Assembly: GCA_007376135.1 (NCBI GenBank)
Contig: VMFR01000006.1
Span: 3,273-67,272 of the forward strand
Direction of reading: 5' to 3'
DNA length: 64,000 nucleotides
Source of the DNA: Parcubacteria group bacterium Gr01-1014_31
GTDB lineage: Bacteria; Patescibacteriota; Patescibacteriia; Buchananbacterales; GWA2-38-13
Both the position numbers and the translations under genes were made by a program. This document shows, piece by piece, positions 36,140 through 64,000 of the stretch. How positions within the stretch are numbered: the stretch's first letter is position 1; the number at the start of each line of letters is the position of its first letter. The notes beneath the pieces were generated by a model. The model ran no database searches. It was given only the letters and a program-made list of their open reading frames with translations, and was not told the origin of the DNA.

Positions 36140-36327
36140 GTTCGTCACCTCACTTTCCGTGTCCGGAAAAATTCCGAACAGCAATGACGCCCCTGCATTA
36201 ATGCTTAATTTCGCGCTGTTTTTGCCAGCGCATTTGGGGCGTGATGTTGATAACTCTAATATAAAATCCACGTAAAAGCAAATCCTGCAAGACCACAAAC
36301 GGCAATAATTGTCAACAACAAAAAGTT

Positions 36328-36546: not shown

Positions 36547-36556
36547 TGGCTTGACT

Positions 36557-36585
36557 AAGCAACAAAAATCGGCTAGTATCACCAG
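36557..36585 (+). promoter_or_regulatory. sigma70-type promoter (TTGACT, 17 nt spacer, TAGTAT) for the 36835 gene, preceded by a 4x heptad array
   Basis: TTGACT aagcaacaaaaatcggc TAGTAT has perfect spacing. The NNATACT x4 array sits at -40 to -70, as an activator site would. A roughly 250-nt structured leader follows. Confidence 0.55.
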
Positions 36586-36608
36586 TTGTTCGTTGACAAC
36601 TGACAAAT

Positions 36609-36637
36609 GTCATCCCGGCCCCGGAGCCGGGATCCAG
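36609..36637. repeat. REP-like palindromic element GTCATCCCGGCCCCGGAGCCGGGATCCAG
   Basis: Hairpin ATCCCGGC/GCCGGGAT. Two related copies in inverted orientation occur at 40130-40198. Confidence 0.5.
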
Positions 36638-36834
36638 AAACCAAGAAACAAAAATGGCAGGCCCCGCTGCGAGTCGCAGCGCGGTCAAAGCCACAAACCC
36701 ATCAAGGAAAAAGTTTCAAAATTAAGATGGCAAGCCCAGATTTCTCCCCCTTTCGAAGGGGGAGGTAGAGGGGGTTAGGGCCAATTCCTTAATTCTTGAT
36801 TCTTGCTTCTTGATTCAATGGAACGGAGGTTCCC

Positions 36835-39800
36835 ATGTCTCGGATTCAGAATGTTCTGGTCGTCTTCGGTCGCCAAAGCTCTGCGTCAGCGACGCTCGTC
36901 GGCATCGTCGTCGCCCTGGTCGTCTCGACGGCTCCTGTCGCCACTCCCGTCCTGACTGTCGCCACGGTCATCGCCCTGCCCTCCCCCATCCACGCCCAAG
37001 TCCAACCTCCGAAGGTGGAGTGGGAACGGATCTACTACGACTTTGACTTTAGTGGTTTTGTTGAGAACGAAAACCTGTCAGTTCAGCAAACCAAAGACGG
37101 GGGGTTCATCGTAGTTGGTCGAACAGAGTCATCTGAGGCTAGATTGAGTGATATCCTGCTGCTAAAAACTGACACCGAGGGAAACCCAACGTGGCAGAAA
37201 ACGTATGGCGGTACAGGTGAAGATTGGGGATATTCGGTTCAACAGACCGCTGATGATGGTTACATCATAACAGGATACACCACCTCCTTTACTACCGGGA
37301 AAATTTACCTGCTAAAAACTGACACCGAGGGAAACCCAACGTGGCAGAAAACGTATGGAGCACCCGGCGATTTAGCCTGGTCAGCGCAACAAACCAACGA
37401 TGGGGGTTACGCTATCGCTGGTTCTGGATTTTCACTTGCCCGAGCTGGCGAGGTGTATGTGGCCAAAACTGACACTATTGGTACTGTAATCTGGCAACAA
37501 ACCTTCGGTGGTGAAAATGAAGACTCCGGCCACTCAATCCAGCAAACCTTTGGTGCTGATAAAAGTCCTAATGGTTATATAATAACCGGCAGGACGGATT
37601 CCTTCGGCGACGGAACGCCCCTTCATCCAGACGTCTACCTACTGAAAACTGACAATACAGGATCCTTGGTTTGGCAACAGACCTTCGGTGGACCGGCTAA
37701 CGACCAAGGCTGGTCGGCCCAACAAACTAGCGATGGCGGTTATGTACTAGCCGGATACACATTTTCTTTTGGTATCAACGGCGATGTCTACCTAATCAAG
37801 ACCGACGTCACCGGTTCCCTGGTTTGGCAACAGACCTATGGTGGATCATTAGGAGACACAGGAAGATCAGTCCAACAAACTACCGATGGTGGGTACATTA
37901 TTGCAGGTGAATCTCGGTCATTTGGATCAGGTAACGAGGATGTCTACCTAATCAAGACCGACGTCACCGGTTCCCTGGTTTGGCAACAGACCTATGGTGG
38001 TGCAAATCACGACTTGGGATTCTCAGTCCAACAGACTGTTGATGGTGGCTACATCGTGGTAGGATATTCCAATTCATTTAATCCTGCCAACTGGTGTGTC
38101 TACCTCGTCAAACTCGGCCCCGAGCGACCTACTCCCCCCACCCGCCACCAGCTGCACCTGTTCCGCGACAACCAGTTCGTCCCCCTCACCGATGAAGCCA
38201 GAGCAGACTTCGACCCCCAACTCCCCGCCATCGTCATCGTCCACGGCTGGAACAGCCACCTCCTCGACCAGCTCCCCGACTGGACCCTGCAGACCGCCCG
38301 CGCCCTGGCTGCCCGCGATACCAACCCCTACGTCAACCTCTTGGCCTGGGACTGGATGCTGGAAGCCAAAGGCAACGCCACCACCACCCTCAACCCGTTT
38401 GGCCTAGAAAAAGCCGCTGCCGAAGTCTACGACCAGTCAGCCAAACTGGCTTCCGCCCTGCGGCAAACGTTTGCCGCCCGCGGATTCACGCTACCGGTCC
38501 ACCTGATGGGCCACAGCCTGGGGTCGTTCGTAGTGACCTTCACCGGGCTGCAGCTCCAAGACCCGGCGTTCGGGACCACCTACGACGTCGCCAACGTTAC
38601 CCTCTGGGACCCGCCAGACGCAGTCCCCAACAGCCTGGCCGACAACGTCCCCTTGCTGCGCAGCCTGGGCACCTACGTCGACAACTTCCGCGGCGCCTTC
38701 AACCGCAAAACGTACTTCGCCAACGCCTGGGTAGCTGCCCCGTCGGCCAGCGACGACGGCACCACGTCCCACGACACCTACCGCTGGTACCGCGACCGCG
38801 TCCAGCCTGCCGACGAACCCATCCTCCACACCACCCTCACCTGCACCGACGATCGCTACAACGGCACCGTCGGCTTCGGCGCCTCGGCCACCCACGCGCC
38901 ACCCACGCGCCAGCTGCGCTTCCCGTGCGATGCGGGTAACCTCGGCATCTCGCTAGTTGCCGACTCCGCCGATACGCGCTGCGCGGACGCCCGCGACCTG
39001 ACCATCTACGGCCAGTACTGCGTGGCGGATGCCCGCACGACCCCCGTCCTTACCCTCAAATTGGATACTGGCGTTGGCAGCAACCTCTGTGATTGCCTCC
39101 TTCCCACCGACCTGGAGCTGCGCATGAGGATCAAGCCTCGGCAAGCGCTTCGGGGACAAGGTGGAGCCGATGACGACCTGACCGCCACCTACACCCTGCC
39201 CCTCACCGTCGCTGAACCGTGGGATTTCCTGCAGTTTAGCTACCAGTTCGTTGCCGTTCCGGCCCCCGCCGCGCTCACCGTGAGCGTCATTGACGGCGTT
39301 GACGAAACGCCGCTGCTGGCGCTGACGTCGGAGCAAAACCCCATCGGGGTTGAACGGCTCTCGCCGCTGCTGGATATTTCGTCCTTCCGCGGCAAAACCG
39401 TTGACCTGGTGTTTTCGCTCACGTCCTCACAGGAGGGCGCAAGCGTTGAGGTTGCCAACCTCACAGCGCTGCAAAGCGCGTTCCACGCCAACGTCCCGCC
39501 CACCGTGTCCGCGGGTGCAGACCAAGCCGTCGCCGTTACCGACCCCCTCTTCACTGCCGTTACCCTGAACGGTTCGGCCACATCGGACCCCAACGGCGAC
39601 CCGCTCGTGTACGCGTGGACGCTGCCCTCCGGTATTGCGGCCGTCGGTGTACAACCGACGCTCGCCCTGCCCCTGGGCGGCTACCCGTTCACGCTGCATG
39701 CGCGCGACCCGTTCGACGGGTTTGGGTTCGACGAGACCGTCGTCGAGGTGGAGTATCCGTTCGTGCGCGGCGATGCCAATGCCGATGGCGAAGTGAACAT

Positions 39801-40026
39801 CACCGACCCCATCGTCACGCTTTCCGCGCTGTTCCTGGACCCCACCGTCATCCTGTGCCGCGATGCGGCCGATGCCAACGACAGCGATACCGTCGACATC
39901 TCCGACCCTATCGCGACCCTCGGGTTCCTGTTCCTGGGGACGCCGGCCGCGCTGCCCGCGCCCTCCCCTGCGCCGGGGCTCGACCCCACGCCTGACCTTT
40001 TGGGCTGCATCCTACCGCGGCCCTGA
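36835..40026 (+). CDS. secreted multi-domain protein: beta-propeller repeats + lipase-like alpha/beta hydrolase + PKD-like domain + C-terminal dockerin-like module with conserved Cys tail
   Basis: GGAGG SD. Signal peptide. About seven 47-aa repeats (...G(Y)xxxGxTxSFGxGxxDVYL(I/L)KTDxxGxxxWQ(Q/K)TYGG...SVQQTxDGGY...), some duplicated exactly at DNA level. Lipase motifs IVIVHGWNS and GHSLGS. A PKD-like domain (VSAGADQAV...LNGSATSDPNGDPLVYAWTL). The C-terminus reads GDANADGEVNITDPIVTLSALFLD...CRDAADANDSDTVDISDPIATLGFLFLG...PGLDPTPDLLGCILPRP. Confidence 0.8.
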   Translation: MSRIQNVLVVFGRQSSASATLVGIVVALVVSTAPVATPVLTVATVIALPSPIHAQVQPPKVEWERIYYDFDFSGFVENENLSVQQTKDGGFIVVGRTESSEARLSDILLLKTDTEGNPTWQKTYGGTGEDWGYSVQQTADDGYIITGYTTSFTTGKIYLLKTDTEGNPTWQKTYGAPGDLAWSAQQTNDGGYAIAGSGFSLARAGEVYVAKTDTIGTVIWQQTFGGENEDSGHSIQQTFGADKSPNGYIITGRTDSFGDGTPLHPDVYLLKTDNTGSLVWQQTFGGPANDQGWSAQQTSDGGYVLAGYTFSFGINGDVYLIKTDVTGSLVWQQTYGGSLGDTGRSVQQTTDGGYIIAGESRSFGSGNEDVYLIKTDVTGSLVWQQTYGGANHDLGFSVQQTVDGGYIVVGYSNSFNPANWCVYLVKLGPERPTPPTRHQLHLFRDNQFVPLTDEARADFDPQLPAIVIVHGWNSHLLDQLPDWTLQTARALAARDTNPYVNLLAWDWMLEAKGNATTTLNPFGLEKAAAEVYDQSAKLASALRQTFAARGFTLPVHLMGHSLGSFVVTFTGLQLQDPAFGTTYDVANVTLWDPPDAVPNSLADNVPLLRSLGTYVDNFRGAFNRKTYFANAWVAAPSASDDGTTSHDTYRWYRDRVQPADEPILHTTLTCTDDRYNGTVGFGASATHAPPTRQLRFPCDAGNLGISLVADSADTRCADARDLTIYGQYCVADARTTPVLTLKLDTGVGSNLCDCLLPTDLELRMRIKPRQALRGQGGADDDLTATYTLPLTVAEPWDFLQFSYQFVAVPAPAALTVSVIDGVDETPLLALTSEQNPIGVERLSPLLDISSFRGKTVDLVFSLTSSQEGASVEVANLTALQSAFHANVPPTVSAGADQAVAVTDPLFTAVTLNGSATSDPNGDPLVYAWTLPSGIAAVGVQPTLALPLGGYPFTLHARDPFDGFGFDETVVEVEYPFVRGDANADGEVNITDPIVTLSALFLDPTVILCRDAADANDSDTVDISDPIATLGFLFLGTPAALPAPSPAPGLDPTPDLLGCILPRP

Positions 40027-51855: not shown

Positions 51856-53802
51856 TCAGCGCTGGCACCGCGGGAAACTGGCGCACCGCAGGATATCTAG
51901 GGTCGGATCCGCTCCGCACGCCGCAAAGGGAAACGGGGGATCTTCCATTTCTCCGGTGAACAGGTACTTGAGCAGGTACCCAGGATCCGCGATATTCACG
52001 ATGCCGTCGTCATTGACATCCGCGGCATCCAGACAGCGCAGCGATGGGCCGCCCAAAAAAAGATGGTTCAAGATGAACATGGCATCACTGAGGTTATTAA
52101 CCCCATCGTCGTTCGTATCGCCGCGCATGAACAATCTCGGCGCGAGCCCGTCGGCGACGAACAGTATGGCAGCGGTCCTGCCCGCCAACGTGATAGGAGA
52201 GGATGACTCGGGCCCGAGCCCGACCCACCCATCGCGATTCACCGTGCGGTCGACAAAAGCCTGATACCTGATACCGGGATACTTGCGCGCGGGGTCGATG
52301 GTCACGGTCTCCGGCGTGGGGTTGACGATGACCAGTGCGCGCTCGAACTCCCGGGCGTACACCGCTTGCGTATCCGGCCAGATGAAATCACCGCCGAGGG
52401 CAAAACCAATGGGCTGGTCGAACCCCTCCCAATCATTCAGTTCCCCGACATTGTAGCGCAAATAGAACCGGTCCTCTTCCCGGCCAGCGGCCAATAGAAT
52501 GCTGGCGTACGTGAACAGCATCCGGTTATCGTTCGGCCATGGCGGCACGACGTATTCGCCCTTTTCATTTATGACGCCACCCGCCTCCCAATCCGCATTC
52601 AGCTTCTCACCCTCGCGGTACTGCTTCCCCATATACACCCACGCCAGACCCTTCTCCATGGCGGTTTTTACGTCTGCCAGCTGCCGCTGCCAGATCGTCA
52701 ACGGGGTGATCCCTCCCTTGGTGTGATAGTACGGCCCGTTGTGGGAGGCAAACCACGCTCCACTCTCCGATTGTACGGCCCCATACGTTGCCACGAGGTC
52801 CCACCCGTTGATCCCGCAGGCCTCCTCCTGAATGATCACATCACCGACATTCGGCGACATCACAATAGGCTTGCCGCTGATGGAACCGTCCGGGAAGGCT
52901 TGATCAACTCCGGCACGAACCGCCACTGCGATGTTCATGATCTCCTGGTACTGTTCGCAGGTCGTGTACGTGCTGCCGGTCCTGGGGTTCAGGGGATCCC
53001 AGCGGTGTTCCTTTTCCGCCGTACTGCCGTTCACGGCATCATACCGACGCACCTGCCAGTATCGAATTCCCGCATTATCCATCCAAAAACCGTCGGCGCC
53101 TTGCGCGATGGCCTGCTTGGCCCGATCGACAAAAAAACTCACAAACTCCTGGCTGCCCAGATCGTACACCCATTCGTTATAACTGGTTTCCGGTGCGGTC
53201 GGCACGGTGAACGGGGTGACCACCCGATGGAAAATATCTTTTACTCCCAACGGCATATGCAAATACCACTCCTCCTTGGTATCGCTTGAAGCAAAAATAT
53301 TAGCGGCGATATTCCGGGTATTCGCGTATTCCAGGATGTACACATTCGGATTCACGTTCCGAAGATACACATAAGCATCGGGCATCCATTCGCCGCTCCG
53401 CTGGATCCACGACGGTGAGATCATATCGTTGCGCAAGGCGATCGTCCTCAGCTCCGAGGTGATGCAATCCGGCAATGCTTCAAACGGCACTCCGCTCTGT
53501 CCGTTGCACATATCCTCCTGCCATCGTGAGTATTCTTTCGGCAGACCCCTATACAACAGCAGCGGCGACTGATGGTCGCCGGCCCGGATCGGCCTGCCGC
53601 CCAGGCCCAAAGGTTGCGCGGGCGACTCAAGGGCAATACCGACCCTGAGTGTTTTCGTGAGCGACCATCCGGCCGCGAGCGCCATCATCCCCCCGGCCAC
53701 AAAAAGCGCAACAGCGGAGACCGCAAGCATGACCGCCGCGGCAACGGCGGGGGCGTGCGATGTGCTCACCTTAGTGTTCGCGGAAGCGGAGGCAGTAACC
53801 AT
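51856..53802 (-). CDS. dockerin-tail family protein b: signal-anchor + putative glycoside-hydrolase-like TIM-barrel domain + C-terminal dockerin-like module
   Basis: N-terminus ...AVMLAVSAVALFVAGGMMALAAG. Central domain with ...FVDRAKQAIAQGADGFWMDNAGIRYW..., reminiscent of GH114/GHL-type polysaccharide hydrolases (low confidence). C-terminus GDTNDDGVNNLSDAMFILNHLFLGGPSLRCLDAADVNDDGIVNIADPGYLLKYLFTG...CGADPTLDILRC... Confidence 0.7.
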   Translation of the reverse strand: MVTASASANTKVSTSHAPAVAAAVMLAVSAVALFVAGGMMALAAGWSLTKTLRVGIALESPAQPLGLGGRPIRAGDHQSPLLLYRGLPKEYSRWQEDMCNGQSGVPFEALPDCITSELRTIALRNDMISPSWIQRSGEWMPDAYVYLRNVNPNVYILEYANTRNIAANIFASSDTKEEWYLHMPLGVKDIFHRVVTPFTVPTAPETSYNEWVYDLGSQEFVSFFVDRAKQAIAQGADGFWMDNAGIRYWQVRRYDAVNGSTAEKEHRWDPLNPRTGSTYTTCEQYQEIMNIAVAVRAGVDQAFPDGSISGKPIVMSPNVGDVIIQEEACGINGWDLVATYGAVQSESGAWFASHNGPYYHTKGGITPLTIWQRQLADVKTAMEKGLAWVYMGKQYREGEKLNADWEAGGVINEKGEYVVPPWPNDNRMLFTYASILLAAGREEDRFYLRYNVGELNDWEGFDQPIGFALGGDFIWPDTQAVYAREFERALVIVNPTPETVTIDPARKYPGIRYQAFVDRTVNRDGWVGLGPESSSPITLAGRTAAILFVADGLAPRLFMRGDTNDDGVNNLSDAMFILNHLFLGGPSLRCLDAADVNDDGIVNIADPGYLLKYLFTGEMEDPPFPFAACGADPTLDILRCASFPRCQR

Positions 53803-53909: not shown

Positions 53910-54407
53910 CTAGTAGGGCGAGGATGACGGCGACGGTGTTGGTGTGGGCGACGGAGCTGTGCACGGCGGCAGACTATCGGCCGTGGCATCGGTGCCAAGC
54001 ACCGTGGCCGGAGCAGCAGGGCCGGAACCGCTGCCGAACGCCCAGTTGATATAGGCAATCACATCGTTGACGTCGCGGACGCCATTGTCATTATAATCAG
54101 CGGCGTCGGCGCAACTCAGCGTGATGGATGGCGGGGCGGCGACCGGCCGCAGCTGCGACAACGCGCGACCCATCAGTTCGATCTCCTGCAGCGCCTCCTG
54201 CCGGTTGGTCGGGCTACCCAACACCCCGTCGCCGTCCACATCGCGACGGATGAACTTGGCTCCCGACGTGTTCGTGTTGGTGGTCGTCGTGTTGGTGTTG
54301 CTGGTATTCGTATTGGTGGCCGCCACGACCAGGGACGCGCCAACCGCCAGCACGAGCGTGGCGCTGGCCACCGTCAGACCGACGGCGATGAGCGAGCGTT
54401 GATGCAT
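53910..54407 (-). CDS. dockerin-tail family protein c: minimal member (signal peptide + Asn/Thr-rich linker + dockerin-like module + variant Cys tail)
   Basis: 165 aa. Signal peptide, TNTNTSNTNTTTTNTNTS, DVDGDGVLGSPTNRQEALQEIELM, SCADAADYNDNGVRDVNDVIAYINWAFG, tail GTDATADSLPPCTAP. Confidence 0.65.
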   Translation of the reverse strand: MHQRSLIAVGLTVASATLVLAVGASLVVAATNTNTSNTNTTTTNTNTSGAKFIRRDVDGDGVLGSPTNRQEALQEIELMGRALSQLRPVAAPPSITLSCADAADYNDNGVRDVNDVIAYINWAFGSGSGPAAPATVLGTDATADSLPPCTAPSPTPTPSPSSSPY

Positions 54408-54459: not shown

Positions 54460-55773
54460 CTAGGGATACTGCGCACACCCCAGCGGGTCGGCCGTGGGGT
54501 CGGGGCCGGGGGTGGTGGGGCCGGGTAAGGTAATGCTTCCCTCGCCCGTGAAAAGGAAACCGAGGGTATTCTTTGCGTCCGCGATATTCACGAGGCCGTC
54601 GTCGTTGCTGTCGGCAGCATCGTCGCACCGGATGGTCTTGCCGGTGCCCAAGAACAATACTTCCAGCGTATACACGGCATCGGAGATATCCACCTTGCCA
54701 GTGCCGTTGACGTCGCCGCGGCGGAACGATACGCATCCTTCATCGACCGTGCCATCGCAATTATTATCAATGGTGTCACAAAGTTCTACCGCCTCGACAT
54801 GCACCCCGCGATCAGTGTCATTACAATCGCACCGCTGCCACGAGGTAGTGCAGCTCTCGCTGCATGCGCTGTACCCATCGTCATCGGCATCCGTATCCAC
54901 GTCCGTACACACGCCGGCATTTAGGCCGGTGCATGTATACGTATCATCGGAGCACGCATCAAGATCGCTCGCACCCGCCACATCGCATCGCTGGTCCGGT
55001 TCATCAACCGCGCCATCGCAATCATTATCTTTCAGATCACACCACTCGAGATTATTCGGATGCATCCTCCAGTCCGCATCATTACAATCTGTTGCGTCGC
55101 CAAGACTGCATCCCCTGCTCCCGGGAGACCCGTAGCCATCGCGGTCAGCATCTTGACACGGAAGATGGGAGCAAGTCGGCCCGACGCCAAGCTCGGAAGC
55201 GCAGTTCAATCCCGCGAGCAGGTCGCCGGAGCCGGCCTCTAAACGGAAATGAATCTCATACTTCCGGGGATTGCCCTGGCCCAACGCGCTGTCGCCCTGC
55301 CGGTACGCATAATTACAGGGAAGATCGGCAGTCTGGCAAGAACGATCGTTATTCGGCGCGGCCGCGGAGCCACTGGGGTCCCGCGGGGCAACCGCCAGAA
55401 GGACGGGCTCCATGCACTCGGTATCAAACTCCCATCCGAGGCGGCCGAAGCAACCATAACCGTTCGGCGGATTGCCGATCTCCCCATCCCCCCAATGGGC
55501 AAAGGGGTAAGAATTCTTGTCGGCAAAATAGATTTCCATGACTGCCTGAATAGCGCGCACATCGCCGATACGCTGCGTATCGCGCTCTGCCGGACCCGCC
55601 GGAACAGCCGCGATACGGAATACATTTTGTCGCTGCGGGCCGACGATGCCGGCGACCGCCATCATGCCGCCAGCGAACGACAGGGCCACTGCGGTTACCG
55701 CAAGCACCGCGGCTGCGGCGACAGTCGTACCGGTTCGGGTGGCAGTCTGCGTGGCCAAAAATGGACGTGGCAT
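54460..55773 (-). CDS. dockerin-tail family protein d: signal-anchor + pilin-like head (GspG-like alpha-beta) + Cys-rich putative metal-binding repeats (DNDCDG..DE) + dockerin-like module + PGPDPTADPLGCAQYP tail
   Basis: ...AVTAVALSFAGGMMAVAG..., then ERDTQRIGDVRAIQAVMEIYFADKNSYP (compare pseudopilin ARD.QR.SD.R.IQ.ALE.Y..DNG.YP). Repeats CDLKDNDCDGAVDE and CDTIDNNCDGTVDE. The start is set at MPRPF (track ORF to 55848). Confidence 0.7.
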   Translation of the reverse strand: MPRPFLATQTATRTGTTVAAAAVLAVTAVALSFAGGMMAVAGIVGPQRQNVFRIAAVPAGPAERDTQRIGDVRAIQAVMEIYFADKNSYPFAHWGDGEIGNPPNGYGCFGRLGWEFDTECMEPVLLAVAPRDPSGSAAAPNNDRSCQTADLPCNYAYRQGDSALGQGNPRKYEIHFRLEAGSGDLLAGLNCASELGVGPTCSHLPCQDADRDGYGSPGSRGCSLGDATDCNDADWRMHPNNLEWCDLKDNDCDGAVDEPDQRCDVAGASDLDACSDDTYTCTGLNAGVCTDVDTDADDDGYSACSESCTTSWQRCDCNDTDRGVHVEAVELCDTIDNNCDGTVDEGCVSFRRGDVNGTGKVDISDAVYTLEVLFLGTGKTIRCDDAADSNDDGLVNIADAKNTLGFLFTGEGSITLPGPTTPGPDPTADPLGCAQYP

Positions 55774-55829
55774 AAATTCCGTTCTGTCAATGAAGGTTAA
55801 ATAATTATTGAATGACCTCATCGTGCACG

Positions 55830-58800
55830 CTAGGGATACTGCACGCACCCTAACGGGTCGGCCGTCGGGTCGGGGCCGGGGATTTGCGGGCCCGGAAACG
55901 GAATGCCGCCGGTACCGGTGAAGAGATAATTAAGCGTATTCATTGGATCGCTGATATTGACCAGGCCGTCGTCGTTCGCGTCGGCAGCGTCGTCGCACAG
56001 GAACTTGAGGTTAGGGTCGACGAACAGCGCCTTGAGGGTAAAAATGGCGTCGCTGATGTTCACTGCCCCGCTCGCGTCGGCGTCGCCGCGGCGGAACTGG
56101 GGCGCTGGCGGATCGGTTTCATCGTCATCCTCGGCGTTCTGACAGCCGGGGTCCTGCGAATCCGTCTTCCCATCACCGTCGTTATCCGCGGTATCGGAAC
56201 ACTGGGGAAGTACCGGCATGGTGACGACGACGGGACTCGACGTATCGGACGCACCGAACAAATTCACGAAGCGAACGCGGTATTGGTACGAACTGCCGGC
56301 GCGAACGGTTGTGTCCGTCACGGTACCGACCGCGGCTTTGACCGTATCCAACGCATTCCAGACCGCTCCGGTGAATGATCGTTCGACGACCGCCAGCGCA
56401 TCGGCCGGACCGGCGGACCAGCGGACGGTCACCTGCGTCGGGGCGGTTTCCGCCGTAACCCCGGATGGTATTTGCGGCAGCACGGGGAGGTCGGTGAACC
56501 TCGCGGCTTCGCCGATCAGGTACGGCCGCACCTGTTTGAAGATCAGCTGGCCGGACGGCAAATGCTTGAACTCAAAATCCAGGAGCACGCGTTCCGGCGC
56601 GTAAGGACCGCGATCGAGGGGAAATCTCTGTTCGACATAATACATAAACCACCCCATTTCCTTGACCTGCTCCGCGGTCAGCACCAACTGCCCTGCCGGG
56701 ACTTCGGTCGAGGCGCGCGCCCGGTAAACGATAACGTCGCCAAAACTGACGATCCGAAGCGCATCAATCTGGGCGTAATCGACCTCGGGCATGACTCCCG
56801 GATCGGGCGATACCACGCTGATATCGCCCGTCTGCGCGAAGATCTGGTACTTGTGATACCGATCTTGTGCTGTCGGGTACGCCGGATTGCCCGTGAAGGC
56901 AACCCCGTTGTCGCGCTCATCCGGAGTACCGGTATTCACCAAAATTGCCATTGCCACCTCATTCGGCAGCTGCCAGTACAACCGCTCCTCGAACGCGCGC
57001 GGTAAGAACGCCGACATCCACACATCCCGCAACGCGTGCGCGACCGTTTGCTCGTGGTCCTCGGAACTATCGCAGGTGGCCACCGTATCGCCGTCGTACT
57101 GATCGCTCAGACACACCGTGCGTGATTCATACAGCCCCGCACCGTTGAATTCAAGTCCGTCCTCCATATTGGAAGAGGAACGGAAGCGCACGCGGATGAG
57201 CTGGTTGGTCGCATCATCACGCCCATCTTTATTGGCATCGTTCCATAGCTGGCTGATGCGGTCCGCGATCACTTGCGCGGCGTTCTGCGGCAGCGCCGAC
57301 CCCGGCAAGGTGACGTTGGGGATGGTTCCGTGGTCCTTCCCGTAGTCCCAGAACGCATTCAGGCAGTCGTCGCGCTGCTTTGGACTGGCCAGAATGGCCG
57401 TATCGGCCAACAGCCGCCGGTAAAATTCTTCGTACGTGACCGCCCAACGACATTGGGCTGGAAAACTGGAAGTGCTGGTAATGCGACTACCGCGCAGGAA
57501 GTCGTAGAAATAGCTGAACGGGATGCCGAACGCCTCCAACTGGTACCTGGGTACCAGGATGCGGTAGAGCTTGGCCAACCCATTCACTTTGCCGCCGTAC
57601 CGGCTGAACGTGGAAGTTGGTTCTTCCGTCATCTCGCGGACACGGTCCAGCCCGCGGTAGGTGGCGTTGGTGGGCTGCGGGGGTTTCAGCCGCGGACGGT
57701 TCGCTTCCTGCCAGGAAACCACTTCTTCGGCGGTCGCAGGATTCACATTCACGACCGTACTCTCGACACTAATCTTCACCAGCTGGCCGTCATACGGAGC
57801 GTACACGGTAGCGGCGTTATCAACGTAGGCATTAGGTCGGTTACGACGCGCCATCCGCAGGCTCAAGTGGCTGGCGTTGGTAACTTGCCGCGTACCGGTG
57901 ATGACGGCCGTGACCGGCGTTTCCACATCAAACGGCGCCTCATCGAAGACGAGGATATCCTGCCAGCTGATGTTCCCCTCCTGCTGCAGCTGCTGAAACG
58001 TCTGCGGCGTCACCAGCCGCAAACGCCCATAGGCCGTGCCCAGCGTGTAGGGTTCGTACGGCGGGCCTTCCTTCGGCAGGATGACCGCAAACTCCTGCGG
58101 CTCCCAGGTTGTCGCCTCGGCGACTTCCGCATCGCTCAAAATGACGTACGCGAACGCCGCGCCTGGGATAGCAATGCCCTGCCGGATCGACTGGTAGAAT
58201 TCCACGACGTCCGGCAAGGTCGGAACGAACGGCGTGAACCCGCCGGGGCCAAGATTAACGAACAGCGAAAAACGATAGGTCGGATCGGGCCAGGTTCGCC
58301 ACAGCGACCCGGTACGATACACCCCATCGGGGCCGAACAGCTCCGGGGGAAGCTCGAATCCTTCAAAACCCGCGACCTGGTCGGGCGCCAGCAGCCGCAG
58401 CACGTCCAAGTGCCAGGTGGCGAAGGTCGCATTCGCAAACACCACCTGGTCCAGACACCGTTTTCCGGCCGCGCGGAACGGAGCGCAGTACGCGTCAATT
58501 TTACTCGGTCGCGGTACCACGACCATCAGCCGGCAGTACGGATCGGATTCGCTGCAACCCAGCAGCGTACGGAACTGGTCTTCAGAGGTTATTTCGTTCG
58601 TCCAAAGGGTCTCATAAAAGATTGGGAACGTAGCACCGGCCGCCTGCCAAGCGCGGGCCTGGCCGGTCAGCTCCTGATACTTGCCGTTCGGATAGTAGTG
58701 GACCGGCCCGAGCCCTACCCCCTGCTGCAGCGATGCCAGTACTGCGGTCACCTGCGCCTGCTGGGGAAGGATGATGCGGGAAGGTGTGGACGGGTCGAAC

Positions 58801-59357
58801 ATCACCGCGAACGCCGTGCCATAGCGGGTCGGGTCCTGCAAAATCCGGTGCAAATCAATAAAATCATACACCGCCGTGCGCGTTCCATCCCACCGGTCGA
58901 AAAATAACTCGCGAATCTGCGTGCTGTTCAGACCAGCAAATGCATCCGGATAATTCTGCTGAATAAAATCAGCTGCCACAAAATCTCGACGGTTGTAGAA
59001 GAGCGGGGTGCTCAAACACCGTTCATGGCCCGCACAAAAAATATCGATCTCGGGATGCCGCGGCACGACGACGCTCACATAGGCTCCCCGCCGGTCTTCG
59101 CGGTCGAAGTCGGCGACCAGCTGGTCGAACTGTTGGGACGTTGCGATCGACAGAGCGCAATCGGTTCGTCCGGCGCAAGGGTCAAAACCCACCGCGGAAA
59201 TCCGCACTCGCCCGCCGAACGCCTGGTAGCCGGCCGCCACCGCCATCATCCCCATCGCGAACGACATCGCCAGCGCCGACACGGTCACCATCAGCGACGC
59301 CGCGACCAGAACGCTGGACTGCAGCTTCACCCGCAGGAGGATATTCTGTTCTGGCAT
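55830..59357 (-). CDS. dockerin-tail family protein e: signal-anchor + PEP-utilizing-enzyme-like region (mobile-domain-like segment and PPDK/PpsA-type ATP-grasp nucleotide-binding domain) + Ig-like domains + dockerin-like module + tail
   Basis: N-terminus MPEQNILLRVKLQSSVLVAASLMVTVSALAMSFAMGMMAVAAG. IRVRFRSSSNMEDGLEFNGAGLYES aligns with PPDK/PpsA [22 protein letters not shown] / VRSSATAEDLP. GVAFTGNPAYPTAQDRYHKYQIFAQTGDISVVSP aligns with [35 protein letters not shown]. ...GTRQVTNASHLSLRMARRN... resembles the TSHAAI phosphohistidine segment. C-terminus RGDADASGAVNISDAIFTLKALFVDPNLKFLCDDAADANDDGLVNISDPMNTLNYLFTG...PGPQIPGPDPTADPLGCVQYP. Confidence 0.75.
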   Translation of the reverse strand: MPEQNILLRVKLQSSVLVAASLMVTVSALAMSFAMGMMAVAAGYQAFGGRVRISAVGFDPCAGRTDCALSIATSQQFDQLVADFDREDRRGAYVSVVVPRHPEIDIFCAGHERCLSTPLFYNRRDFVAADFIQQNYPDAFAGLNSTQIRELFFDRWDGTRTAVYDFIDLHRILQDPTRYGTAFAVMFDPSTPSRIILPQQAQVTAVLASLQQGVGLGPVHYYPNGKYQELTGQARAWQAAGATFPIFYETLWTNEITSEDQFRTLLGCSESDPYCRLMVVVPRPSKIDAYCAPFRAAGKRCLDQVVFANATFATWHLDVLRLLAPDQVAGFEGFELPPELFGPDGVYRTGSLWRTWPDPTYRFSLFVNLGPGGFTPFVPTLPDVVEFYQSIRQGIAIPGAAFAYVILSDAEVAEATTWEPQEFAVILPKEGPPYEPYTLGTAYGRLRLVTPQTFQQLQQEGNISWQDILVFDEAPFDVETPVTAVITGTRQVTNASHLSLRMARRNRPNAYVDNAATVYAPYDGQLVKISVESTVVNVNPATAEEVVSWQEANRPRLKPPQPTNATYRGLDRVREMTEEPTSTFSRYGGKVNGLAKLYRILVPRYQLEAFGIPFSYFYDFLRGSRITSTSSFPAQCRWAVTYEEFYRRLLADTAILASPKQRDDCLNAFWDYGKDHGTIPNVTLPGSALPQNAAQVIADRISQLWNDANKDGRDDATNQLIRVRFRSSSNMEDGLEFNGAGLYESRTVCLSDQYDGDTVATCDSSEDHEQTVAHALRDVWMSAFLPRAFEERLYWQLPNEVAMAILVNTGTPDERDNGVAFTGNPAYPTAQDRYHKYQIFAQTGDISVVSPDPGVMPEVDYAQIDALRIVSFGDVIVYRARASTEVPAGQLVLTAEQVKEMGWFMYYVEQRFPLDRGPYAPERVLLDFEFKHLPSGQLIFKQVRPYLIGEAARFTDLPVLPQIPSGVTAETAPTQVTVRWSAGPADALAVVERSFTGAVWNALDTVKAAVGTVTDTTVRAGSSYQYRVRFVNLFGASDTSSPVVVTMPVLPQCSDTADNDGDGKTDSQDPGCQNAEDDDETDPPAPQFRRGDADASGAVNISDAIFTLKALFVDPNLKFLCDDAADANDDGLVNISDPMNTLNYLFTGTGGIPFPGPQIPGPDPTADPLGCVQYP

Positions 59358-59396: not shown

Positions 59397-61382
59397 CTAG
59401 GGGTACTGCACACACCCCAATGGGTCGGCCGTCGGGTCGGGGCCGGGGATGGCGGGGCCGGGTGACGGTATCTCGGGTCCGCCCGTAAACATATATTTCA
59501 ATGCAGCAATCGCATCCTGGGTTTGGATCTGGCCGTTGTCATCCGCGTCAGCGGCGTCCTGGCAGCCGGGTTGCACCCCACCCGGGAGCAGGCTGTTGAG
59601 GATAAAGATGGGGTCCGAAATATCAACCATCCCGTCACCGTTCGCGTCGCCGCGGCGGAACAGAAATTCTCCCTTGGGTGGCGCCGGGAAAGCAGAGGGA
59701 TCATTGTACTCGTACCAAGCAGTGCGATGGAGATCGTGCCGAGCCATCGTCCATGGGGCGGCATACGCCGTAACATCACTCCCGGGAAATAAAAAGGAAA
59801 CCATTTTTTGATTGACGCAAGAGCCACCCAGGCAAGCATCTGCACGAAAAACCGCCTCAAGACGACCATCACCATTCAGATCCGCCACAGCCCCACCGGT
59901 ATGTTCGAACGCATACCCTTCAATATTCTGATACGCCCCGACCTGACTTCCGTCGGCTTTAAAAATCTTAATTCCATCGTTCTTGGTTGTCACAAAAATT
60001 TCTGGCACCGAGTCCGCATCAATATCAGCAAGCGTTGATTGCCCATACCATGCCTGATCGACGTGCAAATCGTTAAGTAAAATTCCGTGAACATCAAATA
60101 TCTCAACACGGGGGGGCTCCGAGTCTTCGTGATCTTCGTAAAATGAAGTGATAATTTCTGGCGTATCATTCACCGAGGTAACAACGTCTCCGACCGCCTG
60201 TAGAAGCAATCCAACACCATATCTTCGTCCCCAGCCCTCCTTTTGCCAGATTATGTCGCCATCGTTTTCCAAAAGGACAAGCCAACTTTTGGTTTCTGAC
60301 CCTGGCGTTGCCACGATTTCCATACTGGCATCGCGGAAAAAATCAGCCGCGGCGAGTTGGGGCATATAACCCGAAGTTTTTTGCTCAACATCGTTCACAA
60401 ACCGACGCCAAATTCGCTGGCCATCATGATCGAGCCGAAACACAGCGGTTCCGCAATACGGCCTTCCGTCGATCGGCCGTCGACGGACATTATCGCCAAC
60501 AATGATTATTGGACCAGGGTCGGGCCCGGCAGTAAAAGGAAACCCTTCAATTTGATCGTCGACATCGGTATCATCCGTCGTAATACAGTCACAGCTCACA
60601 AACACAATGTCATTCCACCCATCGCTATCCACGTCAGGGGTAATGGCGGGAGACGTACAGCTGGAAGAATAGTCTGTTTCGCCGACCGGGTATTCCCAAA
60701 GGACCCTGCCTGCCCCGCTCACGGCAAACACAACGTCCCGGTAACTCGGGTCAGAAGAAAGATCTCTTCCAACCAAGATGAAATCCTGCAGCTCGTCGCG
60801 ATCAAGATCCGCGATTGAAGGCTCCCAATGCATAAGATACTTGTCCTGTGGATCAACCGGCACGCGCAGGAGCATCTCGCCGTGCGCGGTCGTGAGCACC
60901 AAGGCATTCATGCCATCACTCGACGACATATACTCGATCTGAACCAGCTCATTCACTCCATCATTATTCCAATCAATAATAGAAATCGGGTTAAAATTAC
61001 TAAGCCGCCGATATTGAAAATCCTGATTTATACTTTTGCCTTGGTGAGAAAGAAATAACGGTGGCCCCTCATTGAATTCTTCAACAATATAGGTGTCACC
61101 GGCGAGAATCTCCATACCTACATCTGGCGTGATTTCACCCAGAGATGCCAAATAATAACTACTTCTCGATAAATAATCGTATTCCCACAATTTTTCCATG
61201 ACCGGCGAACCTGCGGCCATGTGAACCACAAGATGCCGTTCTTGCAATACCATCCCACCTGCCACCGCCATCATCCCCAGCGCAAAGGACAGCGCGACGG
61301 CCGAAATGCTGACCATCAGCGATGCCGCGACCAGAACGCTGGACTGCAGCTTCACCCGCAAAAGGATATTCTGCTCTGCCAT
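59397..61382 (-). CDS. dockerin-tail family protein f: signal-anchor + FG-GAP/VCBS-type beta-propeller + dockerin-like module + tail
   Basis: The N-terminus MAEQNILLRVKLQSSVLVAASLMVSISAVALSFALGMMAVAGG is near-identical to protein e, including about 70 bp at DNA level. FG-GAP-like DxDxDGxxD loops (DVDSDGWNDIVF, DLNGDGRLEAVF). C-terminus RGDANGDGMVDISDPIFILNSLLPGG...GCQDAADADDNGQIQTQDAIAALKYMFTG...PGPAIPGPDPTADPLGCVQYP. Confidence 0.75.
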   Translation of the reverse strand: MAEQNILLRVKLQSSVLVAASLMVSISAVALSFALGMMAVAGGMVLQERHLVVHMAAGSPVMEKLWEYDYLSRSSYYLASLGEITPDVGMEILAGDTYIVEEFNEGPPLFLSHQGKSINQDFQYRRLSNFNPISIIDWNNDGVNELVQIEYMSSSDGMNALVLTTAHGEMLLRVPVDPQDKYLMHWEPSIADLDRDELQDFILVGRDLSSDPSYRDVVFAVSGAGRVLWEYPVGETDYSSSCTSPAITPDVDSDGWNDIVFVSCDCITTDDTDVDDQIEGFPFTAGPDPGPIIIVGDNVRRRPIDGRPYCGTAVFRLDHDGQRIWRRFVNDVEQKTSGYMPQLAAADFFRDASMEIVATPGSETKSWLVLLENDGDIIWQKEGWGRRYGVGLLLQAVGDVVTSVNDTPEIITSFYEDHEDSEPPRVEIFDVHGILLNDLHVDQAWYGQSTLADIDADSVPEIFVTTKNDGIKIFKADGSQVGAYQNIEGYAFEHTGGAVADLNGDGRLEAVFRADACLGGSCVNQKMVSFLFPGSDVTAYAAPWTMARHDLHRTAWYEYNDPSAFPAPPKGEFLFRRGDANGDGMVDISDPIFILNSLLPGGVQPGCQDAADADDNGQIQTQDAIAALKYMFTGGPEIPSPGPAIPGPDPTADPLGCVQYP

Positions 61383-61419: not shown

Positions 61420-62379
61420 TTAAATTTCTTCCCGCTTCATTTCGGCCAGCACTTCCTGCACGTCCCTGGCATTCACCGTAGGGACGATACCCTCCTTGCC
61501 AGCCGCCACCTTGCGCAAACCGACGCGCGATGCGGCCTCATCAATGAGGTCAATGGCCTTGTCCGGGAACGATTTCTCGGGAATACGCCGCGCCGCCAGA
61601 TCCACGGCGGTTTTTAGCGCCGCATCGGTCAGGGTCACGCCGTGGTGGCGCTCGTAGCGCGCCTTGATGCCCCGCAGGATCTCCAGCGTCTGCACCAGCG
61701 ACGGTTCATCCACCATGATGGGGTGCAGCCGGCGGTCCAGCGTGGCGTCCTTCTTGATGAATTTCAAATATTCGTCGCGCGTGGTAGCGCCGACCACCTG
61801 CAGGTCGCCCCGCGCCAGAGCGGGCTTGAGGATATCATCGGCCCCGATGGCGCCGGTTGCCTCTCCCGCTTCCGCCAGGGTGTGGATCTCGTCAATGAAC
61901 AGGATGATCTCCCGCTGCGACGCAATGATCTCGTCGGCGATGCGTTTCAGTCGCTGCTCGAATTCGCCGCGGTACTTGGTGCCGGCGACGATGTTGGCGA
62001 GATCCAGCGACAGCACGCGTTTGCCGTAGAGCAGCTGCGGCACCCGCTTGGCAACGATCGCTTCGGCCAAACCCTCGGCGATGGCGGTCTTCCCAACCCC
62101 CGATTTCCCGACCAGCACCGGATTGTTCTTGCTGCGACGCGACAGCACCTGGATGACCCGCTCAATTTCGTGCTCGCGCCCGATGACCGGATCAAGCCGG
62201 CCCTGCGCGGCCAGAGCCGTCAAGTCGCGCGAATACTGCGCCAGCGTCGGAGTTTTGGACATTTTCGTTTTGCCGCGCACCCAGGTAAAGACGACGAGCA
62301 GGACCACCAGCACGACGCCCAAAAAAATGAGCTCGGGCTTGAGGAGCAAAAATTTGAAAAAATTTACGAGGGACGGCAT
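61420..62379 (-). CDS. membrane-anchored single-domain Clp/Hsp100-type AAA+ ATPase (ClpA/ClpB D1-like only)
   Basis: The start is set at MPSLVNFFKF... (TM helix GVVLVVLLVVF). Then LAQYSRDLTALAAQGRLDPVIGREHEIERVIQVL, Walker A GKSGVGKTAIAEGLA, Walker B LFIDEIHTL, and GATTRDEY. It ends after D1 with no second AAA domain. The first 159 codons of the track ORF (to 62856) are Arg/Ser/Cys-rich, likely artefact. Confidence 0.65.
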   Translation of the reverse strand: MPSLVNFFKFLLLKPELIFLGVVLVVLLVVFTWVRGKTKMSKTPTLAQYSRDLTALAAQGRLDPVIGREHEIERVIQVLSRRSKNNPVLVGKSGVGKTAIAEGLAEAIVAKRVPQLLYGKRVLSLDLANIVAGTKYRGEFEQRLKRIADEIIASQREIILFIDEIHTLAEAGEATGAIGADDILKPALARGDLQVVGATTRDEYLKFIKKDATLDRRLHPIMVDEPSLVQTLEILRGIKARYERHHGVTLTDAALKTAVDLAARRIPEKSFPDKAIDLIDEAASRVGLRKVAAGKEGIVPTVNARDVQEVLAEMKREEI

Positions 62380-62491
62380 GGCGCGGTTGACGACAGTACC
62401 GTGCGTGCCTACAATGAGGGCGCGCGCCGGTCGCGGAGGACCGGGGAGATATCCCCACGCCGTAATTTCCCCTCCGCATTCCACGTCTATT

Positions 62492-64000
62492 ATGCCACAA
62501 ACCGAAGATAAGAACCAACCACCGCAACTCACCTTCGACGATCTGGCAAAGTCCGTCAAAGCGAATGATCTGAAGGTGGATATTGACGTCCTCAAAAAAG
62601 CTTTTGCCTTCGCGACGGAAGCGCACAAAGGGCAACGGCGGCGCTCGGGTGAACCGTATGTGCAGCACCCGCTGCAAACGGCCATCACCTTGGCGGAAAT
62701 GCGGCTGGACCAGGCCACTCTCGTCGCCGGGCTGCTCCATGACGTTCCCGAGGACACGACGTTCAACCTGGTAGAAATAGAGAAGCGTTTCGGCCCGGAA
62801 GTCGGCGGGCTGGTCGCCGGCATCACCAAGCTGGGCAAGATCAAATACCGCGGCATCGAGCGCTACGCCGAGAACCTGCGCAAGATGTTCATCTCCATGG
62901 CGCAGGACGTGCGGGTGGTGCTGATCAAAATGGCCGACCGGCTCCACAACCTGCGCACCATCGGCGCGCTCCCACCCGAAAAACAGCGCAGGATCGCGCT
63001 GGAGGTGTTGGAGATCTACGCGCCCATCGCCAACCGCCTGGGTATGGGCCGCTTCAAGGGCACCATGGAAGACCTTGCCTTCCCCATCGCCTACCCCGAG
63101 GAATGGGCGTGGTTCAAAACGCACATCCTGCCCCAGTACGAAGTGCGGGTCCAGGAGATCTCCTCCACCATCAGCGAATTGAAAAAAGTGCTCGGGGCCA
63201 ACAAGATCAAGGTGCTGGACATCCACGGCCGCGCCAAACACTACTACTCACTGTACCGCAAGCTGCTGCAGCCCCAGTACAATAAGAACCTCAACCTCGT
63301 CTACGACCTGGTGGCCATCCGCGTCGTGGTGCCCACCGCCGACGACTGCTACAAAGCCATGGGCGCCATCCACACCCGCTTCACGCCGCTCCCCGGACGC
63401 ATCAAAGACTACATCGCCCAGCCCAAACCCAATAACTACCGGTCACTGCACACCACGGTCTTTGCCGACGGCGGCAAGATCGTCGAGGTCCAGCTGCGCG
63501 ACCAGAAAATGCACCAACAGGCCGAATACGGTATTGCCGCGCACTGGCACTACAAGGAGATGGGCAAACACTTCTGGACGCGCATCTCCAAGACTCAGGG
63601 TTTCCACCATAAGGGCTACATGGTGCCCAAAAAAATGAAGTGGATCCAGGAGTTGGCCGTCTGGCAGCAGGAGGTGCAGGATACGCGCCAGTTCCTCAAA
63701 CGGCTCAAGATCGACGCCTTCCGCGACCGTATTTTCGTCTTCACCCCCAACGGCGACGTCATCGACCTGCCGGAAGACGCAACGCCCGTGGACTTCGCCT
63801 ACTACATCCACAGCGACATCGGCAACACCTGCGTCGGCGCCAAGATCAACGGCAAACTGGAGCAGCTGGACACCCAACTAAAAAACGGCGACGTCGTGGA
63901 GATCATCACCGATAAATCCCGCAAATCGCCGGGCCGCGACTGGCTGCGGTTCGTGCGCACGGCGGCGGCACGCAATAAGATCCGTAGCACCCTGCGCCAT
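62492..64000 (+). CDS. (p)ppGpp synthetase/hydrolase RelA/SpoT family, 5' part (runs off the window)
   Basis: ATG at 62492, open to the window end. It is not in the track because no stop falls within the window. HD domain (HPLQTAITLAEMRLD..., LLHDVPEDT), synthetase motifs (...YRSLHTTV..., YGIAAHWHYKE) and TGS (VFTPNGDVIDLPEDATPVDFAYYIHSDIGNTCVGAKINGK). Confidence 0.85.
   Translation, partial: MPQTEDKNQPPQLTFDDLAKSVKANDLKVDIDVLKKAFAFATEAHKGQRRRSGEPYVQHPLQTAITLAEMRLDQATLVAGLLHDVPEDTTFNLVEIEKRFGPEVGGLVAGITKLGKIKYRGIERYAENLRKMFISMAQDVRVVLIKMADRLHNLRTIGALPPEKQRRIALEVLEIYAPIANRLGMGRFKGTMEDLAFPIAYPEEWAWFKTHILPQYEVRVQEISSTISELKKVLGANKIKVLDIHGRAKHYYSLYRKLLQPQYNKNLNLVYDLVAIRVVVPTADDCYKAMGAIHTRFTPLPGRIKDYIAQPKPNNYRSLHTTVFADGGKIVEVQLRDQKMHQQAEYGIAAHWHYKEMGKHFWTRISKTQGFHHKGYMVPKKMKWIQELAVWQQEVQDTRQFLKRLKIDAFRDRIFVFTPNGDVIDLPEDATPVDFAYYIHSDIGNTCVGAKINGKLEQLDTQLKNGDVVEIITDKSRKSPGRDWLRFVRTAAARNKIRSTLRH

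Follow-up and report, generated by a model that had tools for sequence, protein, structure and literature searches.

A dikinase-type ATP-grasp module in a predicted surface-anchored, dockerin-tailed protein of a Parcubacteria genome

Results

Gene e and the layout of its product

We analyzed a 64,000-nucleotide stretch of the genome of Parcubacteria group bacterium Gr01-1014_31, a member of the Candidate Phyla Radiation (CPR), and refer to this whole stretch as the window. The window has ~60% GC and carries ordinary chromosomal genes (FtsZ, FtsA, HisRS, EngA, DprA, topoisomerase I, an LCP protein and tRNA-Val). Its gene e occupies positions 55830..59357 of the minus strand (stop codon 55830-55832; coordinates checked by translation) and encodes a protein of 1175 aa, protein e, that is a 100% match to the NCBI entry 'Uncharacterized protein G01um101431_1136' from the same organism. 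From the list of open reading frames (ORFs), the NCBI identity and the translation, we annotate the whole gene as a predicted exported dikinase homologue. An earlier note on this DNA, made from its letters alone, had observed a dikinase-type module within a dockerin protein, and this observation is confirmed. The kind of enzyme is a known one; what is new is its predicted location, its putative acceptor domain and how large its uncharacterised family is.

From N- to C-terminus, protein e consists of a signal-anchor, two copies of an N-domain, a His domain, an ATP-grasp domain, an FN3 domain, an acidic disulfide repeat and a divergent dockerin with a Cys-containing tail. The peptides that had drawn attention to the protein are located at aa 723-745 (VRFRSSSNMED...), aa 818-851 (GVAFTGNP...) and aa 493-506 (TNASHLSLRMARRN).

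The ATP-grasp domain

The ATP-grasp domain (aa ~575-950; 56508..57635, minus strand) was assigned using Pfam, profile comparisons to the PDB, AlphaFold2 (AF2) modeling with Foldseek, residue conservation and Cys covariation. The Pfam model PPDK_N (PF01326) aligns aa 697-945 to profile positions 81-308 of 328 with 26.5 bits (E = 4.7e-6), 0.5 bit under its gathering cutoff of 27, a result that is borderline by itself. Homologues at 40-54% identity score 38-72 bits, several of them spanning the full profile. A 22-sequence core profile, compared to the PDB, retrieves an archaeal phosphoenolpyruvate (PEP) synthase (8a8e, E = 6.1e-16) and rifampin phosphotransferase (RPH, E = 2.9e-6), and the motifs GGK, RSS..ED, NGV.FT.NP, D.E and Q.RP are in register with those of the PEP synthase PpsA and of RPH. 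The AF2 model of aa 430-960, calculated from a 117-sequence alignment, has a pLDDT of 90.7 and a pTM of 0.91. Its best structural match by Foldseek is RPH (5hv1, E = 3.9e-13), followed by pyruvate phosphate dikinase (PPDK; 1jde, E = 6.6e-6) and generic ATP-grasp ligases, and the isolated ATP domain of RPH (5hv6) aligns to it with a TM-score of 0.69-0.73. Because the relatives' scores, the family profile and the AF2 and Foldseek results agree, the assignment is settled and, judged from these profiles and models, the PPDK/PpsA/RPH-type ATP-grasp fold claimed in the earlier note is real.

In protein e, the motifs of the domain read GGK590, VRFR726SSSNMED, GAGLYES745, NGVAFTGNP, DFE929FK and KQ942VRP. 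We counted residue conservation in 145 cluster representatives with pairwise identities below 50%. Arg724, Ser745 and Glu929 are conserved in 145/145, Glu732, Asp733, Gln942 and Arg944 in 144/145, Lys590 and Arg726 in 143/145, and Ser727-Asn730 in 140-144/145, while His497 of the adjacent His domain is conserved in 144/145. Counted along the 5fbs alignment, Arg117 of RPH corresponds to Arg726, and the Lys of GGKGANL (Lys22 in RPH and PPDK) corresponds to Lys590; Lys22 and Arg117 are essential in RPH (PMC4844700). Thr136 of RPH falls in a gapped region, and its counterpart is ambiguous; the nearby invariant Ser745 is a candidate. By homology, the catalytic residues of the ATP-grasp and His domains are intact in protein e: the residues on which the earlier proposal depended, His497, Lys590, Arg726, Glu929 and Gln942, are kept in 143-145 of the 145 representatives. 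The domain also contains a family-specific predicted disulfide loop, C749-C762.

The His domain and the N-domain repeats

The His domain (aa 431-555; 57693..58067, minus strand) was assigned from conservation and from Foldseek searches with an AF2 model. It carries His497 (codon 57867-57869), the candidate phosphocarrier, within NASH497LSLRMARRNRPN, and this residue is conserved in 117/117 sequences of a further alignment. Two Pfam models had been suggested for checking the dikinase assignment, of which PPDK_N scores just under its cutoff on protein e and the mobile-domain model, PEP-utilizers (PF00391), has no match in protein e (E ≤ 1) or in its relatives. A profile of the His domain only, compared to the PDB, yielded chance matches to ribosomal protein L28 and no PEP-utilising enzyme. 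The evidence for the domain is structural and positional, and consists of matches of the beta/beta/alpha type, the invariant His497 and its place beside the ATP-grasp domain. The AF2 model of aa 60-560 has a pLDDT of 89.2, and its Foldseek matches include the MccF/LdcA C-domain, AF_0055, RraA, IlvD, aconitase X and the N-terminal phosphohistidine domain of Enzyme I (1zym, prob 0.94), all of which we take to share a swivelling beta/beta/alpha fold. These matches cover only ~100-150 columns, a length that fits the His domain, and we ascribe them to this domain and not to the N-domain repeats; the His domain would then have the swivelling fold. A non-significant HMMER alignment to the His region of PpsA (2ols domain 4) puts His on His. 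Structure and position together bear out the proposal that a His-carrying domain lies upstream of the ATP-grasp domain, in the opposite order to PpsA.

Upstream of the His domain, aa 60-430 are two copies of a ~185-aa domain that is predicted to be alpha/beta and of which the ~700-aa relatives carry one copy. Repeat 1 (aa 60-245; 58623..59180, minus strand), delimited by alignments and covered by the same AF2 model, contains the Cys pairs 61/67 and 108/114 and is degenerate, with an Ala where repeat 2 has the conserved His316. Repeat 2 (aa 246-430; 58068..58622, minus strand) directly abuts the His domain and is the homologue of the one N-domain found in the ~700-aa lipoprotein clade. Its His316 (codon 58410-58412; alignment column A3 H257) is invariant across 72 sequences. 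The N-domain profile retrieved nothing significant from Pfam or from PDB sequences, and Foldseek against the PDB returned no relative. From its position, the N-domain should be the acceptor domain, with repeat 2 as the putative acceptor-binding copy.

The C-terminal modules

The FN3-like domain (aa 964-1046; 56220..56468, minus strand) has weak matches to Pfam fn3 (14.2 bits, E = 0.053) and to FN3con in the PDB (E = 0.008), and is present in all CPR-type orthologues. It is followed by the acidic disulfide repeat (aa 1052-1074, C1053...C1072; 56136..56204, minus strand), which scores 29.9 bits against a cutoff of 41 on the NCBIfam model acid_disulf_rpt, and by a divergent dockerin double EF-hand and tail (aa 1087-1175, with C1121 and C1171; 55833..56099, minus strand). 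Dockerin_1 (PF00404) aligns to protein e over positions 2-55 of its 57 and scores 13.6 bits, short of its cutoff of 22.9. Paralogue b, whose tail is 51% identical to that of protein e (E = 1e-20), exceeds the cutoff with 25.4 bits, as does the tail of orthologue P0006 (23.3 bits). The conserved tail of protein e reads PGPDPTADPLGC(V/A)QYP. With the single N-terminal hydrophobic segment described below, this favors the reading of protein e as a protein with an N-terminal anchor and a divergent, dockerin-like tail.

A large family of predicted exported dikinase homologues

An exhaustive HMMER search collected 1749 cluster representatives at E ≤ 1e-3, and 216 at E ≤ 1e-30, and a genome scan found at least 591 loci. 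The members come from Planctomycetota, Omnitrophota, Myxococcota, Verrucomicrobiota, Kiritimatiellae, Anaerolineae and Parcubacteria, and the databases name them 'hypothetical', 'PEP/pyruvate-binding domain-containing protein' or 'pyruvate, water dikinase'. NCBIfam holds no model specific for the family, and the searchable literature yielded no description of exported PPDK_N or dikinase proteins or of a link between CotH and dikinases. By sequence, protein e belongs to a large uncharacterised family of predicted exported dikinase homologues, which the earlier note had not noticed.

The family has three architectures. The first comprises lipoproteins of ~700-800 aa with one N-domain. The second comprises ~1800-aa proteins with a signal peptide, DCNGNG repeats and FG-GAP propellers, and accounts for 38/82 loci and 74/152 representatives when the FG-GAP fusion is counted with query segments free of the shared N-domain; one member (P0003) additionally carries LTD domains. 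The third is the CPR type, with the layout of protein e, and falls into seven clusters that are <50% identical. The full CPR architecture (anchor, two N-repeats, His domain, ATP-grasp, FN3 and dockerin) is kept in these 7 clusters, and the operon is kept in locus L010. One Planctomycetota chromosome from a metagenome-assembled genome (OZ244999.1, 9.18 Mb) holds 20/76 of the listed loci (within L016-L069); here the ~1800-aa FG-GAP-fused class has expanded into many paralogues.

Export and topology

The N-terminal signal-anchor of protein e (aa 1-47; 59217..59357, minus strand) is its single hydrophobic segment, with an uncharged stretch of ~30 residues at ~aa 14-43, and is near-identical in paralogue f and orthologue P0004. 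Across many phyla, an N-terminal hydrophobic signal occurs in 194/213 full-length family members (~91%), as counted by a crude heuristic whose hydrophobicity test was also passed by 2/7 cytoplasmic controls. A lipobox-like motif is present in 90 of those 194 signal-bearing members, and most signal-less members resemble truncated gene calls that start inside the lipobox. In orthologues P0005, P0006 and P0095, the N-side of the anchor is strongly positive.

The cysteines and the partner modules provide further evidence. Cys749 and Cys762 sit in an insertion that is absent from PpsA and, across the 145 sequences, both are present in 140, both are absent in 3 and one is present in 2, a covariation that supports an oxidising compartment for the predicted disulfide. 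All 16 Cys of protein e fall into sequence-local pairs (eight pairs). Within the family, the dikinase core is fused or adjacent to modules of extracellular type, namely FG-GAP, LTD, FN3, dockerin, MYXO-CTERM and CotH. Because of the family signals, the Cys pair and the extracellular-type fusions and neighbors, a cytoplasmic topology for protein e is unlikely, and our best reading of its sequence is a predicted membrane-anchored, surface-displayed protein. The earlier note had left two outcomes open, export or a wrong topology prediction for a family that faces the cytoplasm as a whole; the family-wide signals, the anchor charges of the orthologues, the covarying Cys pair and the extracellular-type modules favor the former and make the latter unlikely.

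We also considered export by the twin-arginine translocation (Tat) pathway, with the His charged in the cytoplasm beforehand. A Tat-like motif, loosely defined, occurs in only 8/213 members and, consequently, folded export of a pre-phosphorylated enzyme is unlikely.

Genomic context

Gene e is part of a minus-strand run of genes that consists of an AAA+ ATPase, f (FG-GAP-dockerin), e, d (MopE-dockerin), the small protein c and b (GHL15-like dockerin). The upstream operon partner f (59397..61382, minus strand) encodes an FG-GAP beta-propeller (FG-GAP_3, 51.5 bits) and the downstream operon partner d (54460..55848, minus strand) encodes MopE-type Cys-rich repeats (Cu-binding_MopE, 64 bits), both with the same anchor and dockerin tail. 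Upstream lies the ClpB-D1-like AAA+ ATPase (61420..62856, minus strand; AAA and AAA_lid_9 in Pfam). Locus L010, whose dikinase is 51-54% identical, keeps the AAA, dikinase, FG-GAP-dockerin and MopE-dockerin genes. The AAA+ ATPase is directly upstream of the dikinase operon in both CPR loci (7682-8641 in L010), and in L010 its N-terminus includes a hydrophobic segment. As listed, d starts at a GTG and shares 19 nt with the end of e; because the L010 orthologue begins MPRPFLATQ..., an ATG located 25 codons inside this ORF is probably the true start of d, and the two genes would then be separated by a short gap.

Six ORFs of the window combine an N-terminal hydrophobic anchor with a dockerin-like C-terminus, one on the plus strand (36835-40026) and five on the minus strand (51856-53802, 53910-54407, 54460-55848, 55830-59357 and 59397-61382). 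The dockerin-like module is degenerate in the smallest of them. Four of the six share the anchor motif ...SFAxGMMAVAxG, and four end in ...DPTxDxLGC, which is exact in three. Their passengers are a lipase/alpha-beta hydrolase with PKD, a GHL15-like domain, MopE repeats, the dikinase and FG-GAP. Pfam scans, the only cohesin search made, identified no cohesin partner for the dockerin tails. Around the start of the plus-strand member, GC falls to 0.50 (window positions 36001-38000), compared with ~0.60-0.65 elsewhere.

In other phyla, the recurrent neighbors of the dikinase genes in Planctomycetota are phylum-generic (PSCyt2/PSD1, DUF1501, ABC transporter and enolase-like genes). Genes for CotH lipoproteins (PF08757) lie within ~5 kb of 6/16 short-class loci, compared with 1/66 long-class loci; the six short-class loci partly share one arrangement and represent fewer independent events. 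The CotH neighbors belong to loci of Myxococcota type and are found in L006 (10656-11999), L007 (9126-10418), L008 (14666-16069), L023, L032, L081 and L082, several of them with lipoprotein signals, and none is found among the scanned ORFs of the window. The L008 operon comes after FtsE/FtsX and an M23 peptidase and before an S41 peptidase. In the Myxococcota-type loci L001 (4773-8004) and L002 (4526-8004), 3-4 tandem paralogous ORFs with no Pfam match directly precede the dikinase gene. They have signal-like hydrophobic N-termini and, at the C-terminus, a Cys/Gly-rich segment, a hydrophobic stretch and RRRR; one paralogue of these arrays scores 24.8 bits on the MYXO-CTERM model, against a cutoff of 20.

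A mosaic dikinase gene is present in Parcubacteria GW2011_GWA2_38_13 (L009 7875-11297; LBUD01000041.1). Its passenger (aa ~60-1090, from the N-repeats to the acidic repeat) is ~98% identical to protein e at 52-62% GC, lacks aa 328-371 of N-repeat 2, and is flanked by a diverged low-GC signal-anchor and a diverged dockerin within a contig of 31-44% GC. Its sequence suggests either a recent transfer of a cassette between two Parcubacteria, in which both genomes retained their own anchor and dockerin, or an assembly chimera.

Elsewhere in the window, two minus-strand ORFs of 5989 aa (13737-31706) and 1055 aa (31742-34909) both start with a segment resembling type IV secretion system pilins (TrbC/VirB2-like). 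Big_5 is found in both, and TIG, LamG, TSP3 and F5/8-C in the 5989-aa ORF only. Going by these predicted domains, both are giant pilin-anchored surface proteins. An adenosylcobalamin (AdoCbl) riboswitch, scored at 52.8 bits against a cutoff of 50, lies at 4930-5081 (minus strand). It overlaps with the GTG listed as the start of ORF 3035-5044, whose true start is probably further downstream. The product of this ORF has a prenyltransferase/SQHop-like toroid, DUF4430 and a CarboxypepD_reg domain, and may be a B12-regulated surface protein.

Discussion

A proposed mechanism and its nearest relatives

We give roughly even odds to the proposal that protein e is a membrane-anchored, surface-displayed dikinase of three domains (N-domain, His domain and ATP-grasp), arranged in the order of glucan, water dikinase (GWD) and acting as an extracytoplasmic 'X, water dikinase'. 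By homology to PPDK, PpsA, RPH and GWD, the ATP-grasp domain would bind Mg-ATP through Lys590, Arg724/Arg726, Ser745, Glu929 and Gln942. His497, on its swivelling domain, would attack the beta-phosphate, whereupon AMP would be released and the gamma-phosphate would pass to water or phosphate. The His domain would then pivot and hand its phosphate to an acceptor bound by the neighboring N-domain, in repeat 2, the copy with the invariant His316. We infer catalysis itself, its place outside the membrane and the nature of the acceptor; the binding of ATP and the phosphorylation of His497 are suggested by the conserved residues, and the transfer of phosphate to an acceptor held by the N-domain by the architecture. 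As acceptor, we consider an extracellular or cell-surface macromolecule most likely, a glycan or a protein of the bacterium or of a host, and the ATP would come from the host or the environment. A surface macromolecule is favored because of the FN3/dockerin display and the recurrent fusion or adjacency to FG-GAP and surface proteins.

The domain order is that of GWD. In potato GWD1 (StGWD1), the central acceptor domain (483-926) is joined by a 4-residue linker to the His domain (931-1050, with H992), followed by the ATP domain (1069-1387) (PMC13553574). Compared by this published layout, protein e has its putative acceptor domain at 246-430, its His domain at 431-555 and its ATP domain, also C-terminal to both, at 575-950. 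The comparison of domain orders proposed in the earlier note shows that RPH has a different order, and that the reverse-of-PpsA order, which the note had rightly described, is the order of glucan, water dikinase, a match that it had overlooked (PMC13553574). The expected chemistry would likewise be that of GWD, in which ATP, acceptor and water yield AMP, phospho-acceptor and Pi via a phospho-His, and both enzymes are tethered to binding modules, which in protein e would keep the enzyme on an insoluble or macromolecular substrate. In contrast to GWD, protein e has no CBM45 or CBM20 matches in Pfam, its N-domain is predicted to be alpha/beta whereas the GWD central domain consists of helical clusters (PMC13553574), and it is predicted to be exported whereas GWD is plastidial. 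The solved GWD central domain (9HA9, 9QVI) is not among the top 50 Foldseek matches of the aa 60-560 model.

The other relatives share parts of this plan. RPH is the best structural match of the ATP-grasp domain, the equivalents of its Lys22 and Arg117 are kept, and it has the same three-part logic with a swivelling His carrier; however, its order is ATP-grasp, rifampin (RIF)-binding domain and C-terminal His domain, and it is cytoplasmic (PMC4844700). PpsA and PPDK include the best sequence match of the ATP-grasp domain (8a8e), share the GGK, RSS..ED, D.E and Q.RP motifs and use the phospho-His swivel mechanism. They differ in that their His domain follows the ATP-grasp domain while it precedes it in protein e, in that Pfam detects no PEP/pyruvate-binding TIM barrel in protein e, in that protein e is predicted to be exported, and in that its family has the extra predicted disulfide-bridged acidic loop.

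ATP is not expected outside the cell, which makes an ATP-driven enzyme at the surface puzzling. To our knowledge, all characterised His-swivel dikinases (PPDK, PpsA, RPH, GWD and the flavonoid/aromatic kinases) act where ATP is abundant. The CotH atypical protein kinases and the periplasmic ATP-dependent DNA ligase Lig E are bacterial ATP-dependent enzymes with export signals; they pose the same puzzle of where ATP outside the membrane originates, but their folds and chemistry are unrelated to those of protein e.

Several observations weigh against a surface-displayed dikinase. We know of no ATP source outside the cytoplasmic membrane, and the locus suggests none. Literature searches found no biochemical evidence for any family member. 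No sequence model, in Pfam or by comparison of the His-domain profile to the PDB, recognises the His domain; no acceptor emerges from the N-domain, which lacks relatives in Pfam, in PDB sequences and by Foldseek against the PDB; and an unbiased clustering of neighbors over 84 loci found no universal partner gene. The crude signal heuristic counts on the same side, as do the balanced charges around the anchor of protein e itself, with R9 and K11 before it and R50 and R52 after it.

Alternative explanations

The enzyme may be exported and catalytic and yet process nucleotides or phosphate, either as an ATP pyrophosphatase that converts ATP to AMP and 2 Pi, with water accepting the phosphate in the end, and so scavenges host ATP for a CPR cell unable to synthesize nucleotides, or by running in reverse to synthesize ATP at the surface, for example for a CotH kinase. 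We consider this unlikely, while noting that the ATP and His catalytic residues are intact, that RPH variants uncoupled from acceptor phosphorylation keep ATP pyrophosphatase activity (PMC4844700), and that, in the one clade where CotH genes are neighbors, the two enzymes could draw on the same nucleotides. However, the N-domain with its near-invariant His316 is family-wide and abuts the His domain as an acceptor domain would, simple nucleotidases would be cheaper, and the reverse reaction has no known extracellular high-energy phosphate donor.

Delivery as an effector or toxin, which would act within a host or prey cell by phosphorylating a target or draining ATP, would explain where the ATP comes from. 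Predatory, attached and episymbiotic lineages (Myxococcota, Omnitrophota and CPR) are overrepresented in the family, and one fused member has a weak TcdB_toxin_midN match (E = 0.0013). The architecture, however, is one of display and not of delivery, with a 30-residue anchor that looks uncleaved, an FN3 spacer and a dockerin; many relatives are lipoproteins, no translocation domain or adjacent secretion-system genes are found, and the concentration of 20/76 listed loci on a single Planctomycetota chromosome is more like a surface-protein family. On balance, we judge a delivered effector quite improbable.

If the segment of protein e were a reverse signal-anchor, the enzyme would face the cytoplasm and its ATP. 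The balanced flanking charges would allow such an orientation, and all characterised relatives are cytoplasmic or plastidial (PMC13553574, PMC4844700). Nevertheless, relatives from other phyla have classical cleavable Sec signals or lipoboxes that are incompatible with a cytoplasmic topology, the orthologous anchors are strongly positive on their N-side, the eight local Cys pairs include a co-varying family-specific pair, and the FN3, dockerin, FG-GAP, LTD and MYXO-CTERM partners are extracytoplasmic, all of which leaves a misread topology with very little probability.

We find it just as hard to believe that protein e is a pseudo-enzyme, in which the ATP-grasp and His modules were recruited to the surface for binding or structure, without catalysis. 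Without ATP outside the cell, catalysis is difficult to explain, and protein e scores below the Pfam threshold, but its relatives are well above it. Moreover, the residues of the phosphate, Mg and nucleotide sites and the phosphocarrier His are kept almost totally in 145 clusters that are <50% identical, which indicates purifying selection on catalysis.

Lastly, phosphorylation of an antibiotic outside the cell, as suggested in the earlier note on the model of RPH, is without support and scarcely credible: RPH is the best structural match of the ATP-grasp domain, but its domain order is different (PMC4844700), neither Foldseek nor the N-domain profile compared to the PDB detects a RIF-binding domain or any RPH region matching the N-domain in protein e, the NCBIfam RPH models give ~27 bits on the relative P0161 against cutoffs of 999-1700, and twenty loci in one genome with adhesion-type propeller fusions do not fit a resistance enzyme.

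Implications

Returning to the surface-displayed dikinase, we tentatively extend the proposal to the family, at well under even odds: bacteria of many phyla (Planctomycetota, Myxococcota, Omnitrophota, Verrucomicrobiota and CPR) may share a so far unnoticed system for ATP-dependent phosphorylation outside the cytoplasm, with an exported GWD-like dikinase and its new acceptor domain at the core and, in some lineages, with exported CotH kinases and FG-GAP propellers as partners. Its targets would be surface or extracellular polymers or proteins and, in the episymbiotic Parcubacteria, it would combine dockerin-based display with the use of host ATP. If such a system exists, there would have to be a pool of usable ATP beyond the cytoplasmic membrane. 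It is a long-standing question whether bacteria do use ATP there, and a soluble ectodomain, if active, would make it directly testable. If the enzyme is inactive outside the cell, then the pattern of conservation itself needs an explanation. If it is active there, it would show that bacteria can phosphorylate targets in the extracellular space or the periplasm by means of a dikinase, and would bear on how CPR episymbionts and predatory bacteria deal with their hosts or prey.

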